From: Eremomyces bilateralis CBS 781.70
Lineage: Eukaryota
Strand: one strand, 5' to 3'
DNA: 64,000 nucleotides
Assembly (NCBI GenBank): GCA_010015585.1
Contig: ML975185.1
Positions 1-7,907 of the stretch are shown here, in pieces (positions within the stretch are counted from its first letter, which is position 1; each line of letters starts with the position of its first letter). The notes under the pieces are model-generated. The model did not search any database. It was not told the DNA's origin and saw nothing but the letters and a program-made list of their open reading frames with translations. The translations under genes and the position numbers were made by a program.

Positions 1-3000
1 TGCCTTGAAATGCACCGACTCTGTTGATATTCCGTCCACTCGTCCTTGGCCCCAGGGGTCGGCGTTCTCCAAGAGAATATTGATCAACTCGATCTGAAGC
101 GTGATCAGAATTCGGATGGTAGAAACTGCCCACAAACTCCATGTCGGCGAAGAAATCATCGGCAGTTAGGTCGACCTCATCCGGAGACCGCGATTCTTCT
201 TCGAGTTCTTCTTTCTCCACAAATGCATCGCCAGTAAACGAAGCCATCATGTCCTCCATGGGCACCACCTGTGTTCGATACTTCTGTTCTTCGCTTATTG
301 GTGGGGATTTCGGCTTCAACCCGCTGGCCATACCGATGAGAGTTTGAGTCGAGTCGGCACATGTTTCCATTACGAACAGCTCATCTTTGAAGTCCACCTC
401 AACTGCCTTTGCTCCATCAGCGGCCTCATCGACCTGGATTACTGCCTGGGCAGCAGAGATGACACCAATGGAAACATAGCCTTGATCTTGTAGATCTCGT
501 GCATGCTTGCTTTCGCCAAAGGTCATCGCCGGTTGTCTTGGGGGTCTTTCTACGAATTCATCTAACCTCTCAACGTCGTCAATCAGCAGCAAAGATGCCT
601 TTCGGATATCCAGGACGGCCTTGATAGGGTGATCGATGGGCAGCGCGCCATGGAGCCTGGTGTTCGTACAAAGAAACAGTGCCTTTGCAGTAGAATCATA
701 CGGGTTTAACCCCACCGCACAATCTCGGAGCAAAATATCCAATTGTAATGGTTTTCGCTCGAGCTTCTCTGGGCTAGGTTGTCGGGTCGACACATTCTCA
801 GAGTCCATCGTGATTGTGGCGATAGATAATGCGAGTTCCGTTGTGAGTTCTTCAACTGTTCCTTCTTCGTCAAGACCAAGTATTGCCATGACAGTACTGA
901 CATTGTATTCACAGCAAAGGTTGTGCAGTTTGATTTTAACCGTCGGCTCCATCTCGCCGCCAACCATGCGCGCCATGATCATGGCAGAGTCCTCGGAGGC
1001 CGGGAAACGTAGGACCGGTTTGATGATTTCTTCATCGTCGCCTCGGAAAACCGAAATAGTGCCGACCTCTACGGCTGAAAGGGGTGGGAAGACGACGTGT
1101 GCAACCTGAGCGTTTTTGCACTTCACCCGAGCACTCCCAAAGCGAGCATTTACGGGCATTTCGAGGTCGATATCCTTGATAAGACAGAGGATCAACGGCC
1201 CGGGACTATCATCTTCAGGGAGGTACTTGGTGACGGTCGAAAGTTTGGTGATCTCTTCGTTCAACGACCGCATCTGATCAAGGCCTTCAGGGTTGACGAT
1301 GTTGATGCGGACAGCAGAGGACGTCAAGCGAACAACAGGGCCTCTTTTGCGTTGTCTCAAAAGGATCTCAAGCAATATGTCGTCATCATCCTCATACTTG
1401 TCCTTGGATGGGGTAATCAGGGACACGAGCCTCGTCAGGTCTGATTCTTCCGGTGCGAAACGGAATTCGAGACGCGAGTTGTCGATATCCACCGTAACAG
1501 GGGGGCCGTTCTGCCCTGAAAAGTCATTTGCGCATGTCAATCGAACGGCATCTATCTGCGCGCCAAAAACGGTCTCCCGGAACACGAGCTTAATGGCGGT
1601 CGTTCGAAGCGCAACGGAAGCAGACCTGCCGGCGAGAGTGAAGGTAAAGCCCGCAATACGGGCATTCAGTTTTATTTTGGCTGCAGCATCGCTCGTGGGC
1701 GGGCTCACGGTCGGAGTTGAAGGAGCGAAATGAACACCCTGCGATTTGGGTTTCTTCGGCGTAATAATTGGAGTAGGACTGTTCGAACTGATCGAATTGC
1801 TCAATTCCAGGACTCCGCTCAACCCTCCAAATGCACTCAATGTTTCGTCCAATAGAGGCATATCCAAATTGAAGATAACTGGAAGCGTGGAAACTCCAAT
1901 ATCGAAGGTATTCGCCTTTTTGTGCACCCATGCAGATATAGCTTTCGCTTGGACTTCCTTCAGCACCCTAGTGGATGTTCTCAAGCTTGCCGAGTCATCA
2001 AAGGAAAGTATCTTGTAACTTGTATTCCCAAGCTCAAAACGTCCGATATCTAAGCGACATTTACACGGGTGCAGAAAGTCGTCAATAGAAATGTCAATAT
2101 TTTTCATATCCACAACGAGGATGGCTCGTCGATTCGGTGAAGGATAGTTGTCTGGGTCAGGATCACAGTCGATACTTTCTGACATTTCTTCAACAAACGA
2201 TAAGATAAAGTCCTTGACCTGGAAATTCAGAGGTGCAGGTGTGTGGCTTGGGGATGCATCCGACGGATCCGACGAATCCGACGTGGACAATCCAGTGTCT
2301 AGCTGGCGGAGAAGCTTTAGGATGAGGACGGACAGGATACGACTTGTAAGAGTATCCAGGTGGGAAGTTATCGTCGATGCCTCTAACCCCAGTGGATTTT
2401 TAGCTTCAAAGGCGGTACCCGATTCTTCCGAACGGCTATCAGCTCGAATGGACGCAGTAGACTGCCAAGGATCATTGATCGAGGGTCGACGCCGTGCTGC
2501 GGTGGCAGATGCATATTGGGAGAACGATCCTTCGATGCCCGTGTTTGGTAACGTCATTTCTGAGGGTCGATGCTTCGGCGCATCTTCTGAAGGCCCGGCC
2601 ACAGGCGGATCGACCTCTTCTTCGGAGGGAATCCAGACAAGAAGCTCGTCCACTTTGAGAAAATCGCGGACAGTCTTTGGCAAACCTTCCGTATTCTCGT
2701 CGACCGGTTGAACGCTTTCGGCCACGCCATCATCGTGGACTGGAGGTGCAAAAAAGGAGGATGTAGTGGTATTCGCGCCCCCGTCCGACGTTGGGCTCCT
2801 AGGTCTTGGCGTCACGCAGTCTCGCTCATCCGAATCTTGTGTAGGAGGCTGAGATGGTCCCGCCCCCGAGACATCCGCAATAGTGGGTTGTCCAGAGTCA
2901 GATACGGGCGGAGATGCCTCCCACGCACCAGGGACTCCATGTCTCGAGTCAACCTGGGGAGGTGCTTGGCTCATTGCGCTCATATACATACTTTCGGCCT

Positions 3001-4651
3001 GCTCGTGAGTGAACAATTGGGACTCGGCAAGTTCGCCCATGTCGGAGCCTGAAGAATTGCCTGACGATGGAACTTTTGTTAATGACGGTTCATGATAATG
3101 GATGCCAGAGCCCTGGCTGGATGCCTCGTCAGATGGCAGTGATGATTTAGCGGCGAGTGGTTCCGACTGAGAGAGTAGAATCCCTTGACCTTCCGCTACG
3201 TGATCCAAAGACCTTGACGACCAGAGAGGCGCATCAGTATTTGCTGAAGTCACGAGATTGGCAAGCCGCAGTGGTAGGGACTGAGAACTCCCACTATCAG
3301 AAGCAGACCGGCGGCTTTGAAGTTGCCTTCGGGTTCGCCAATCATGGAATGATACAGACTGTGTCAGTTCTGGATCGTCTTCCCAAAAAGAGTCTCCGAC
3401 GGAGGCTATGCCAACGTCGTCAATCTCGCGCTCCAAGATCGTGGGGGAGCCGTTATCGCCGGGAAGAGGCATAGAGCTAACATTCCGCGTTGAAACCGGA
3501 TCATGACCATCGTCATCTGCATCGGCGAATCGGTCGGCATCTTGGGTAATAATCGAATCCCTTAGACTTTCCGAACGATTTTGCCGAATCGTCGGAGAGT
3601 GGCCTGAAATGGAAGCTGTGGGACTGCGGACGGCGGATCGAGAAGTTTGCGGAGACGACGTTCTATGCCGAATTTCTGAACCGGGTAGAGATCCCGAGGT
3701 CGCACTCCCTGAAACAGAACGATTGGCTGACGGGGATGCGACAGACGGTACGGTGGACGTAGTTTGCGTATTGAACAACCTTGAGTCCGCAATCAATGAG
3801 GCAATCACATTTTGGAGTACCACTCGTCTCCGAGGACCAGGTTCTTTTACTTGAGGAGTTGGAGATGACCCGGTAGTAACCCCTTCGATCCCGATATCGT
3901 CGATGTGAAGTCGAAGGCATGCTTCATAGTCATCCTTGATGCTTATCGCGGGAAAACTTTCGTTTGATAGAGGACCAGGATCAAGAAAGCAGTCAATATC
4001 CCGGACGGTCAATTCTAACCTGTCGCCAACGCCCTTTAACCAGCTCGTCAGGAAAATGGGGAGACTGATGCCAGTCCCAGTGCCGAAAGCAAGATCGTCT
4101 TCAGATTCCGAGTCGGAAAGGTGCATCGACTGGGACTCCAAGGCCGCTTCTAATTCTTTCTTCTCGTCTGCCGGTTCCTCAGCTAAGAAGGACTTTGCCA
4201 AATCTTGAGCAGTCGGAAGGCCTTCCTCTTCGCCGTGAGCACTCGACTTAGATGGACTAGGCTGTCCTGTTCCAGCTTGTGCCGCCGGCTTAATGGTGAT
4301 TTTGAGCTCGACACCTCGCGCCTCGACTCGGATGGGTGTCGCATGAAGATCAGTTGGGATGGACACCCGGAGAAGACGTACGGTAGCTTTGGATAGCTCG
4401 AAATTCGGGGGTAGATGGAGAATCGATAGCAATTTCTACCAGACAATGCATCAGCAGTTTTATCTTTCTCCGATGGAGTCTTGGTCCCGTACCTGTGTGC
4501 GCAGCGCGACATCGCGAAGCTCTACGACGTTCTTCCTTCCCCACGCGATGTCCAAGCTGTCCAGGTCAAGTGCGTCGGTGTCGAGCACATCGATATGAGA
4601 TAGGGCATAGCGAAGGACCCGCCGCTGGATGGAATACGGGATGAACGACAT
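1..4651 (-). CDS. ATG2: Autophagy-related protein 2, 5' part (continues beyond the left edge)
   Basis: ATG at 4651 (MSFIPYSIQRRVLRYALSHIDVLD, chorein-N-like start). Intron 4436-4492 (GTACGG...GCTGAT...TAG). Exon 2 is in the same frame at the points checked down to position 1 and contains METCADSTQTL at ~370, typical of fungal Atg2. It is absent from the ORF track, consistent with no stop inside the window. Confidence 0.9.
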
Positions 4652-5527
4652 GGAGGGTTCAGGGTCCTCGGGCCAAACCCGCAATCAAGAGTGCAGAAGG
4701 ATCCTGTTTTGAGAGAGAGCCATGGGCGCAGCTGTGCGTGCCAGGTATTCCGATGAGGTGAGGGCCGCAGAGTTGGGCACGAGGGCAATAGGGTGGCACG
4801 ACAGAAAGTCAGAGGTGGGCGTCTGGATGATACAAAGGTTAATATATGAGAATCAAAGAGTGAAATAGGTCGATGGTTAAGGCAGCGGCATTGTTGGGGT
4901 CAGGGTGCCTGGAAAGAACAGAAAGACGAGCGTATAGGGTAGCTGGGTGATCAAGAGATAGGGTGTTGATGGTGCTGAATGTGGACCAGCACAGCAAGGA
5001 GACATCAGATGGTACAATGTACTGCGTAGCTTGGTTGATTGATTTGAATATAGAGGTACTCCGTACCGTTGGGTTAATAGGTTAAGGATGGTACCATCGG
5101 AACAGGACCGTACTGAAGATACAGTACATCAGGGACGGTGAGAGAGGTCCTGATATTGATCAACACAGGAACTAATACAGTACAGCCTCCAGAGGCAGTA
5201 CGTATCGGATAGTACCAAGTTAAAGGAAAGGTTGGATGAATAGTGAAGCCATCCGATGGAGGATGGAGGCATGAACCATCGGGATGATGAATGCACGTGA
5301 TCATTCTGGTGCTATGGCTGTGAATGGGGGGGTGATGGGAAAAGGCGTCAAGGCTACAAGGCTAACATGGAACTAACACCTGAGCTCGCTAACACCAGGA
5401 CGAATTCTACCCACTTCAGCGCAAAACTCGGGATCACGAAGACAAAAACATGTTCTATCAATATCATAAAAAAAAGCTGCTATATATACTTTGCTTCCTG
5501 AAGGTAAATCTTGGGAATATGCCACCC

Positions 5528-5539
5528 AAAAACAAAAAA
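5528..5539 (-). terminator. RNA polymerase III oligo-T terminator of the tRNA-Arg gene
   Basis: TTTTTTGTTTTT on the minus strand about 20 nt downstream of the tRNA 3' end. Confidence 0.8.
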
Positions 5540-5559
5540 GATCTGGCAAGTTTGATATT

Positions 5560-5691
5560 AGACCCAGCTGGGACTCGAACCCCTTTAATGGTTGTTAGTA
5601 TGATTCTTTCTCAATTTCTTGCATTTTTATGACTTACAGAACCTTGCCCTTACTATAGGAGGGGCACGCGCTACCATTGCGCCACAGAGCC
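5560..5691 (-). tRNA. tRNA-Arg(CCT) with a 5-nt anticodon-loop intron (5651-5655) and a 55-nt spliceosomal-type intron in the T-stem (5583-5637)
   Basis: Minus strand reads GGCTCTG TG GCGC AATGGTA GCGC G TGCCC CTCCTA[TAGTA]A GGGCA AGGTT CT[55 nt]GGG TTCGAGT CCCAG CTGGGTC T. Removing both inserts gives a 72-nt cloverleaf with perfect D, anticodon and T stems. A box TGGCGCAATGG, B box GGTTCGAGTCC, anticodon at 5657-5659. Confidence 0.92.
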
Positions 5692-6363
5692 AGAATTAAG
5701 CAAAATAAAGGAATTAAGCTGATGATTCTAGCTCATTTTCTAGTCGTTGTGGCCTGAGGACAGCTTGGAGAGCTGAGAGCGGGGAAAACACCAGTCACGG
5801 CTCAGCCACACTAAGATCAACATCCCTGTCACTCTGTGGAGCTAGCCCCATCCAGATTTCAGTGACAAGAGCAACAGAAGCAATCTGATCGACGAAGCAT
5901 CAATTCCTTTGAATTTTGAAACTTGAAACCCCTTGATTGCTGGCTTCACCCACCATATATTATTTCCTTGAAGATGTATAATTTCCCTTATACTTCATTT
6001 TCATTTACTGGGGTAGGACATCGAGGGTGAGGGCCATTATTGAGATTGGAAAGTTTGATATATATCCAATTCAGTCAGATCAGTAGGATAGACACTTCAT
6101 ATAGGAGGAATACGGTATTAAGATATATCTACTAACTAGACTTAAAAAAATTAGATAATGCCCTATTAGGAATGGTTATGTTAACCGCCACTAGTTTTCT
6201 TCCACCCATGATTCTGCTTTATATCACAACCTAACACTAGTTAGGACACCAATACACAAACATGTTGTACACCAATATGCTGAACCTATTGATAGTGGTA
6301 TCTTGTGAAGAGAAAGGTATTCTATGCATTGTGTGCTCTGAGTTTGCGCTTCCATTTTGTTCT

Positions 6364-7275
6364 TCATCGCAAGTTTTCTCCTCCTGAAAGATCTCCTGCA
6401 CTTTGCATCTTCTCTAACCTTTCTCCATCTTCAATCAAGTTGGTCTGAAGCAGCTCCTTCTCTGAGTCATCCACCTTTAGATCAGCGCATGAGGTGATGA
6501 AGTCGCACAACATGTTCTCAACCTGACCTGCGTTCTGGGTAAGAGCGTGATCATCACCATCAAATAGCTTGAGCGTCCTCTGCCCACCCGGTCCATACAT
6601 GGTGTACAGTCTCCCGGAACAGCTCGGACCTAGAGTTCGATCGGCTGTGCCATGAAGCAGCAGCAAGGGCCGAGGGGAAAGTTGTCGAATTCCGTCCGTT
6701 TCTGCAGTCTGACTTGCTATGGTTGCGCACCCAACAACGCGTTGATCCTTCCCCGCGACGGTCAAGGCCGGTGCACCTCCGAAGCTCCATCCTACCAAGA
6801 TGAAACGTTCCAACCCGTAAAGATCTTTCATCAAGTCCATCGCAGCGGTGACGTCTCGGGCACAATACGAGTTCCTCGCTGGGAAGCGGTAGTCCAGTCG
6901 AAGACAAGGGATCCCTCGTTCCAAACTGGCCAGTTTGTCGGAGATTCCAAGATAGACGCTGCTAGGACCGACGACCCCTCCTCCAGCTCCGGATAGAAAT
7001 ATCGCCGCCGTCTGTTTCGGGGCCGTAGTTCGATTTCGAGCGAAGTTGACGGGGAGGTGGAGAAATCCGGTGACAAAGCCATCTTGCGCATCTTCCACCT
7101 GAATCTGCAAAGGTTCAACTTTGCACAGCAGCGATTTAGGTGTCGGTATCTTGTTCAGACGTGTTGCATGGCTTAGGGCTTTGAAATCCTCGATCTTACG
7201 AGGCTGGATACCTGCCGGTTTGGTGCCGATCGCGGAGAGCGATGTCCTTCGTGATGAAGCAAGCATCGTCGCCAT
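6364..7275 (-). CDS. Alpha/beta-hydrolase fold protein
   Basis: 303-aa intronless ORF with nucleophile elbow GWSFGG, LLLLHGTADRT (Asp) and GDDHAL (His), forming a catalytic triad. Confidence 0.85.
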   Translation of the reverse strand: MATMLASSRRTSLSAIGTKPAGIQPRKIEDFKALSHATRLNKIPTPKSLLCKVEPLQIQVEDAQDGFVTGFLHLPVNFARNRTTAPKQTAAIFLSGAGGGVVGPSSVYLGISDKLASLERGIPCLRLDYRFPARNSYCARDVTAAMDLMKDLYGLERFILVGWSFGGAPALTVAGKDQRVVGCATIASQTAETDGIRQLSPRPLLLLHGTADRTLGPSCSGRLYTMYGPGGQRTLKLFDGDDHALTQNAGQVENMLCDFITSCADLKVDDSEKELLQTNLIEDGERLEKMQSAGDLSGGENLR

Positions 7276-7907
7276 ATTTGCAGAAGATATACTGATATCC
7301 TTTGTTTATTCGAATTAGTCTGTTCGCAAGTTTTGAGATGCAAGATACTAATACTGTTGCGTTGAATCGTTACTAGACACTGGACATTGATATGGCGATG
7401 ATGTCATCATTACCTCTCATGACCGGCGGATTAAAAGGGTTCAACAAAGGGTACTGTGGAAATGTTGCCTTCTCTGTTCTAACAAGGACGTGTATGTACC
7501 GTGCCACAAAAATGCATTTTCGGAAGCATTGAATGTGCCTGCAGGGCTCCTGATGGCGCAGAAGGACAACTTGGGACACAAATGGAGTAAGCTGTATGCC
7601 TTGCAGCAGCTCCACAAGGTGGGATGTAATTGTCCAGAGAGGCAGCACGGGGCCTCCTGTTGCGCATATAATCCTAGACCAAGGCCTGAGTACGACGCAT
7701 ATCGGACGGATCATCAGAGCTGGTGATCGTCTTGTGGGAGGTGCCTAAGTTTCAGAGCCTGAAGGAAATATGGATGGTTATCTCAAGCTCAGCGCATTGC
7801 TTCCAGGTTCCATGCGAATTCATACCTATTACTTGCTGTATGGCATTCCGCGCCTGTCTATTCCTGTCGACCTCTTTCCGCGCTGAAATCTCCTTTCTCA
7901 CACTGGT

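Follow-up and report, generated by a model that had tools for sequence, protein, structure and literature searches.

Textbooks assign the introns of eukaryotic tRNA genes exclusively to the tRNA-splicing endonuclease and spliceosomal introns to Pol II transcripts, apart from a few exceptions in snRNA genes and rDNA. A locus of the ascomycete Eremomyces bilateralis CBS 781.70 raises the question of whether a tRNA gene may also carry an intron of the second kind. In the window analysed here, a 64-kb stretch (64,000 nt) of contig ML975185.1, an insert built like an mRNA intron interrupts the T-stem of a tRNA-Arg(CCU)-type gene. This arrangement had been noticed in an earlier inspection of the letters, made without database searches (the sequence-only reading), and the observation is confirmed. 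That reading knew of no described case in a tRNA gene; likewise, no report of a tRNA gene with a spliceosomal intron came up in a search of article full texts. At issue are what the insert is, which machinery would remove it and whether a working tRNA is made.

Layout of the interrupted gene

The gene occupies positions 5560–5691 on the minus strand, as do all its parts, and is made up of exons totalling 72 nt plus two inserts, of 5 nt and 55 nt. The first exon part (tRNA positions 1–37; 5656–5691) reads as the acceptor strand GGCTCTG, the D arm GCGC AATGGTA GCGC, the anticodon stem strand TGCCC and the loop start CTCCTA, within which lies the anticodon CCT. It is followed by TAGTA (5651–5655) at the canonical 37/38 site, which may be either an ultra-short intron of the endonuclease type or a lesion. 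The second exon part (positions 38–50; 5638–5650) contains A38, GGGCA, the variable loop AGGTT, C49 and T50. After the 55-nt insert (5583–5637), a third part (positions 51–73; 5560–5582) supplies GGG, the T-loop TTCGAGT, CCCAG, CTGGGTC and the discriminator T. The larger insert is thus located between C49–T50 (5639–5638) and G51 (5582), at 50/51, where the sequence-only reading had placed it without giving the strand. As that reading also held, taking out the 55 nt restores the T-stem CTGGG/CCCAG.

An A box, TGGCGCAATGG (positions 8–19; 5674–5684), and a B box, GGTTCGAGTCC (positions 52–62; 5571–5581), had likewise been reported, and both are found; they match the consensus of these elements. 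The B box lies entirely 3' of the 55-nt insert. The oligo-T stretch is T6-G-T5 (5528–5539), a likely Pol III terminator that begins 21 nt past the discriminator at position 73. Together with the A and B boxes, this stretch suggests transcription by Pol III.

Standard tools do not recognize the gene, as the sequence-only reading had expected. ARAGORN reported zero tRNAs in the 64-kb window, with or without introns allowed. No Rfam family reached its gathering score within the window. Under lax thresholds, the unspliced sequence matched the tRNA model RF00005 over 5560–5691 (model positions 1–71) with 22.6 bits, against a gathering score of 29. Because both the Rfam gathering threshold and ARAGORN miss this gene, the gene sets of such fungi probably lack some tRNA genes. 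Between 5450 and 5800, an Rfam search at E values up to 10 returned just the tRNA and two weak snoRNA-like matches. Group I introns, group II introns and other Rfam families were considered as candidates for the insert, and none reached the gathering score in the window.

Splice signals, size and fold of the 55-nt insert

The splice signals named in the sequence-only reading are all present. On the minus strand, the insert begins with the donor GTAAGT (5632–5637), carries the branch-site motif TACTAAC (5594–5600) 11 nt from its 3' end and finishes with the acceptor AAG (5583–5585). Donor hexamers of the fungal type are GTRNGY or GTATGT; of the acceptor types, AAG is the least favoured. The claim that the insert is sized like the mRNA introns of the window also holds, since 55 nt fits the window introns of 49–57 nt that are supported by RNA contigs. 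These contigs derive from the only public run found, X1, which behaves as RNA. The stretches skipped by them, of 57, 51 and 49 nt, have CT..AC ends when read on the plus strand and are GT..AG introns of minus-strand genes.

A minimal splice-signal test was defined by a GT start, a G at +5, a YTRAY motif with its A 6–25 nt from the end and an AG end. It is passed by 52 of the 511,588 window segments of 48–55 nt, a fraction of 1.0e-4 in which both strands and the real introns are included. The 55-nt insert passes it, and the borders of the insert are fixed independently by the tRNA structure. In a GT..AG-aware scan, each GT..AG candidate was removed and ARAGORN was asked for a tRNA across the junction; a single site emerged in the whole window, namely the insert at 5583–5637. 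With 27% G+C, an MFE of -0.4 kcal/mol and a z value of +1.0, the insert is unstructured. Its longest T run is 2, in agreement with the earlier statement that no run exceeds two. That the insert is a spliceosomal-type intron, and more than a chance resemblance to one, is strongly supported by these sequence features.

A second interruption in the anticodon loop

The anticodon loop of the window gene has 12 nt (CTCCTATAGTAA) rather than 7, the five extra nucleotides being TAGTA, and MFE folding leaves this loop open. The sequence-only reading, which called the gene tRNA-Arg(CCT), was right in that the body of the gene is homologous to a clade of Arg(CCT) genes, but it overlooked TAGTA and the enlarged loop. 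Once the 55 nt are removed in script, ARAGORN finds a full cloverleaf, provided that a 5-nt loop intron is allowed. The program places this intron so that the anticodon is AGT and calls the gene Thr(AGT). When TAGTA is removed at 37/38, the anticodon is CCT and the gene is Arg(CCT). Given a 12-nt loop with five extra nucleotides, the Arg(CCT) call thus hinges on removal of a second, unusually short canonical-site intron.

TAGTA has less than half the length of the shortest canonical-site introns in relatives (12–13 nt; range 12–47 nt). The endonuclease recognizes an anticodon-intron pair, here C32–G(-3), together with a 3-nt bulge; TAGTA would allow this pair and place the 3' cut in such a bulge. 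If TAGTA were left in, the tRNA would be dead regardless of the spliceosome, and this is the weak point of a functional reading of the gene.

Related tRNA-Arg(CCT) genes

Metagenome contigs were scanned with a pattern fixing 22 positions of the 5' half, which the 5' half of the window gene fits, and 55 tRNA-Arg(CCT) loci were obtained. The same pattern gave 0 matches in a collection of genome contigs and 0 in a collection of viral contigs. Since 22 positions of the 5' half are fixed, old or decayed pseudogenes are invisible to the scan. With introns allowed, ARAGORN reported a tRNA in 52 of the 55 loci, the exceptions being L003, L008 and L033.

According to a structural parse, an acceptor stem with G1–C72 and G2.U71 is common to the window gene and 15 of the loci (L001, L011, L016, L019, L025, L031, L033, L036, L040, L042, L047, L048, L049, L051 and L052). 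Two pairs are duplicates (L011 and L048; L042 and L049), which leaves 14 distinct clade genes including that of the window. The D arm, variable loop and acceptor features of the window gene are the same as in these 15 loci, which parse as Arg(CCT), and its T arm is identical to that of L016. Its acceptor stem contains G2.U71, U4.G69 and the mismatch U6.U67. This mismatch recurs in the five loci of the L001 group, to which the TGCCC anticodon stem strand is also common. The odd acceptor stem of the window gene is therefore a family trait and no sign of decay.

Four further genes of this clade carry an insert outside the canonical site. In L051, 53 nt lie at 45/46 (locus positions 1551–1603), with the donor GTACGT and the acceptor TAG. 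L033 has 55 nt at 60/61 (581–635, minus strand; GTATGT and CAG), L052 has 50 nt at 70/71 (1600–1649; GTAAGC and CAG), and L031 has 48 nt at 3/4 (1534–1581, minus strand; GTATGT and TAG). All four donors are hexamers of the fungal type, and a branch-like YTRAY motif is found 9–11 nt before the end of each of the four. In all five interrupted genes, including that of the window, in-script removal of the insert gives a complete ARAGORN cloverleaf, and each gene has a further intron at the canonical site, of 5 (window), 12, 36, 36 or 47 nt. The family as a whole contains 13 distinct canonical-site introns of 5–47 nt. None of these 13 passes the minimal splice-signal test, whereas all five non-canonical inserts do.

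Interruption with intact stems is therefore seen in 5 of the 14 distinct genes of the G1–C72/G2.U71 clade. The remaining 40 loci, outside the clade, have no such GT..AG insert; among them, L003 is degenerate and L008 ends at the contig end. By all sequence criteria, the window insert is a spliceosomal-type intron of a recurrent class, and its own position, 50/51, has a counterpart in no orthologue. Depletion of T runs was considered as a sign of Pol III read-through and was set aside: T4 is absent from all five inserts but also from 11 of the 13 canonical-site introns, and the comparison has low power.

The four additional genes bear on the idea that the 55 nt are an assembly or sequence artefact and are absent from the genome. 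No independent read data were seen over the locus, which would leave room for such an error. However, the same kind of insert is present in homologous genes of four unrelated assemblies, and an artefact would not create exact splice signals; this explanation is scarcely credible.

The same comparison can be applied to removal of the insert by the tRNA-splicing endonuclease, with the GT..AG appearance incidental. Non-canonical tRNA introns with a bulge-helix-bulge motif, which directs cleavage at many tRNA positions, are described from Archaea, the red alga Cyanidioschyzon and nucleomorphs in the cited portions of two reports (PMC4033280, PMC3978253). Like the inserts considered here, those introns occur at many tRNA positions, there may be several in one gene, and they escape standard finders, as far as these portions go. 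Unlike them, the present inserts lack the motif, have GT..AG and branch signals instead and reside in an ascomycete. For the window insert, the central helix is paired at 0 and 2 of 4 positions in the two registers that preserve the product, and across all five inserts 0–2 of 4 are paired in permitted registers. The gene family does have endonuclease introns at 37/38, where TAGTA also lies; in contrast, the 55-nt insert is unstructured, sits at 50/51 and shows the donor, branch and acceptor signals that are found in 5 of 5 inserts and in 0 of 13 endonuclease-site introns. Endonuclease removal is thus very improbable, and splice signals without a bulge-helix-bulge point to the spliceosome. The spliceosomal interpretation put forward in the sequence-only reading stands as to the type of insert, given its signals, the four further interrupted genes and the missing motif, but that reading missed the second interruption at 5651–5655.

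Several other features of the scanned loci were recorded. When the GT..AG-aware ARAGORN scan was run over all loci, it returned 258 junction-spanning calls, mostly chimeras in tandem tRNA arrays (L026, L028, L029 and L039). In L012, L024, L026, L028, L029 and L039, the Arg(CCT) gene lies within dense head-to-tail tRNA arrays with spacers of a few nucleotides (Arg-Lys, or Arg-Gln-Ser and more), an organization unlike that of the fungal clade. L003 retains only the 5' half of an Arg(CCT)-like gene, up to and including the anticodon arm (909–960), without T arm or acceptor 3' strand; it adjoins tRNA-like sequence on the opposite strand and is a truncated or rearranged copy. L036, L042 and L049 (two distinct sequences) have the T-stem GAGTG/CCCTC with a T.C mismatch and are otherwise normal, with a 13-nt canonical-site intron.

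One locus in three states

The upstream gene in L025, L052 and L031 codes for a PLP enzyme of Cys/Met metabolism, and the protein of L025 is 97% identical to that of L052 and 92% identical to that of L031. Protein-atlas clusters of this enzyme family are mostly bacterial and give no pointer to the phylum of L052. The spacer between this gene and the tRNA gene aligns in parts. The shared upstream gene and the partly alignable spacer indicate that these are orthologous loci of three related species. Distances at fourfold-degenerate sites are 0.42 (L025–L052), 0.79 (L052–L031) and 0.97 (L025–L031) substitutions per site.

At this one locus, a GT..AG insert is absent from L025 but present in L052 (at 70/71) and in L031 (at 3/4). 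L025 and L052 have identical exons, and those of L031 differ from them by C72 to T alone, a change that keeps the pair. L033, whose exons equal those of L025, has its insert at 60/61 and lies on a short contig where the same neighbours are not visible. Three insert sites in the L025 group imply that a 72-nt gene gained, or lost, an insert independently three times or more.

L025 and L052 come from one metagenome, on contigs of 1.27 Mb and 89 kb, respectively. Their silent-site distance of 0.42 indicates that one sample contained either two fungi related to each other or a genome in two diverged copies. L031 contains a 27-nt element of the form GTAAGT..CTGAC..TAG about 25–55 nt past the tRNA 3' end, and its first T5 run comes only ~90 nt downstream; these features could hint at a longer transcript at that locus.

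Neighbourhood and transcription

In line with an ascomycete source, the atlas clusters nearest to the OTU1 protein of the window are most frequent in Ascomycota. In the window, the tRNA gene lies between an alpha/beta-hydrolase gene (6364–7305) and ATG2 (2–4435, with further exons to about 4823), all on the minus strand, and is ~0.7 kb upstream of the ATG2 coding exons. The RNA contigs of ATG2 reach at least 5096, and there is low cover somewhere in 5201–5600. Among the X1 contigs listed, none covers 5601–5897, which includes the 5' exon and most of the insert, and none has a joint at 5583/5637; as to splicing, this speaks neither way.

This setting suggests that the spliceosome might act on a Pol II transcript, the tRNA being embedded in a longer capped RNA and released after splicing. 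The host could be an upstream-started ATG2 transcript or a non-coding RNA. Such a transcript would be in keeping with the shared strand, the ~0.7 kb distance, the extension of ATG2 contigs to at least 5096 and the low cover somewhere in 5201–5600. In L031, moreover, a 5' exon made up only of a leader and 3 nt would sit awkwardly with a transcript lacking a cap, and the ~90 nt behind the gene contain no T run. However, the A box, the B box and a T6 run 21 nt past the gene are what an ordinary tRNA gene made by Pol III would have, and the uninterrupted orthologue L025 resembles a plain tRNA gene with T5 close behind. The missing cover of 5601–5897 in the listed RNA contigs also counts against a longer host RNA. 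Nor is Pol II required, because the U6 gene of fission yeast is made by Pol III and carries an intron, according to the part of the review cited (PMC5855946). A Pol II origin is accordingly improbable, and transcription by Pol III is preferred in what follows.

A few minor features of the neighbourhood were also seen. An RNA contig demonstrates a 57-nt GT..AG intron of ATG2 at 4436–4492 (minus strand). Another joins 4822 to 5067 and skips a 244-nt GT..AG stretch (4823–5066, minus strand), which is kept in contig 4794–5096; the 5' region of ATG2 may thus have an intron that is alternatively retained. Weak box C/D snoRNA-like matches (TGATGA ... CTGA) to Rfam sR23 (10.6 bits) and SNORD39 (13.4 bits) lie close upstream of the tRNA gene on the opposite strand (5717–5779, plus). 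With E values of about 3–5 they are far below threshold, and a terminal stem is not evident.

Known introns in non-coding RNA genes

The closest precedent is provided by the mRNA-type introns in the U6 genes of Schizosaccharomyces pombe and other fungi (Tani and Ohshima 1989, 1991, cited in PMC5855946). In both systems, as far as the cited part of the review describes U6, a short GT..AG intron with a branch site lies in a small, structured, Pol III-type non-coding RNA gene, exon and intron sizes are similar, gains appear species-specific and positions vary. The host in the present case is a tRNA and not a component of the spliceosome, so that the argument from nearness to the catalytic centre, made for U6, is not applicable. 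Also unlike U6, the same precursor would contain a second, endonuclease-type intron, and splicing is here inferred from sequence.

Spliceosomal introns are also known in ascomycete U1, U2 and U5 snRNA genes and in rDNA (Takahashi 1993, 1996; Bhattacharya 2000, named in PMC5855946). These share with the present introns non-protein-coding hosts, some of them not made by Pol II, an ascomycete setting and many independent insertion sites, to judge from the part of the review cited. They differ in host RNA and polymerase. The hosts named in that part of the 2018 U6 review are U6, U2, U5, U1 and rRNA genes, and tRNA is absent from its host list (PMC5855946). In a 2024 review on introns derived from transposons, the cited part likewise deals with those of tRNAs solely as endonuclease substrates (PMC11282704).

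Proposed maturation and its consequences

On balance we lean towards the view that the window gene is a nuclear gene for tRNA-Arg(CCU) whose T-stem has gained, in its 5' strand, a genuine U2-type GT-AG intron, which the spliceosome would remove. Pol III would most likely transcribe the gene, directed by the A and B boxes and stopping at the T6 run; in the precursor, of about 165–190 nt, the T-arm would be unable to form before splicing. U1 would pair with GUAAGU, and U2 and the branch-point factors would assemble at UACUAAC. The spliceosome would then take out the 55 nt as a lariat and join U50 to G51, after which the T-arm could fold, the ends would be trimmed and CCA would be added. The tRNA-splicing endonuclease and ligase would remove TAGTA at 37/38, and the end product would be a 72-nt tRNA reading AGG. 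Similar introns at four other positions in related Arg(CCU) genes suggest repeated gains that were tolerated because the introns are spliced out.

A broader proposal may be made for a lineage of ascomycetes, in which the spliceosome would be a routine enzyme of tRNA maturation. Introns of the mRNA type would be gained repeatedly at almost any position of tRNA genes, and their excision from Pol III precursors would precede that of the endonuclease-type intron. We hold the arguments for and against this generalization to be evenly balanced.

If the proposed maturation is true, tRNA precursors would be a new substrate class for the spliceosome, and two splicing machineries would act on one such precursor. 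Decoding of AGG would be linked to pre-mRNA splicing capacity; AGG makes up 12 of the 84 Arg codons in the ATG2 exon. Standard annotation would undercount the tRNA genes of these fungi. In addition, the family offers a compact natural system for the study of intron gain, since a single 72-nt gene shows three or more independent gains among species with silent-site distances of 0.4–1.0.

Is the interrupted gene functional?

The main alternative is a dead or dying gene: an intron-like sequence would have landed in a dispensable tRNA-Arg(CCU) gene, which would yield no working tRNA. The sequence could have been an introner-like element, an intron that was reverse-spliced and retro-copied, or repair filler, and AGG would be read by another copy or by tRNA-Arg(UCU). 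In budding yeast, tRNA-Arg(CCU) is dispensable, so that dead copies could persist. The window gene has two interruptions, one of them 5 nt in the anticodon loop, its Rfam score is below threshold, ARAGORN is blind to the locus, and the listed X1 RNA contigs do not cover 5601–5897; each of these points would suit a dead gene. Ascertainment by a fixed pattern also favours young pseudogenes.

Every stem is intact in all five interrupted genes, which speaks against decay, but intact exons prove function only weakly. If the insertion time is taken as uniform along each branch, intact exons are estimated from the fourfold distances to be 0.3–0.5 likely per gene for L052 and L031. As the pattern could catch no decayed genes, intact exons in these two loci are only mildly unlikely by chance. 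A stronger argument comes from prevalence. Were the genes dead, 5 of 14 clade genes, and 3 of 4 in the group of L025, L031, L033 and L052, would have been killed within ~0.05 substitutions per site, on branches of 0.1–0.7. The three interrupted members of that group have inserts at different sites, at a neutral divergence of 0.42–0.97. So many recent and independent gene deaths are unlikely, unless such insertions are not lethal. For the window gene itself, death by insertion is therefore rather unlikely, and we judge splicing and function of its tRNA to be somewhat favoured by the sequence evidence.

Introner-like elements, one of the sources named above, are described in fungi as multi-copy, longer and stably folded, and are a possible origin of newly gained fungal spliceosomal introns, according to the cited parts of two reports (PMC3609843, PMC4457414). 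By comparison, the window insert is unstructured, occurs as a single copy within the 64-kb window and, at 55 nt, has the length of an ordinary intron.
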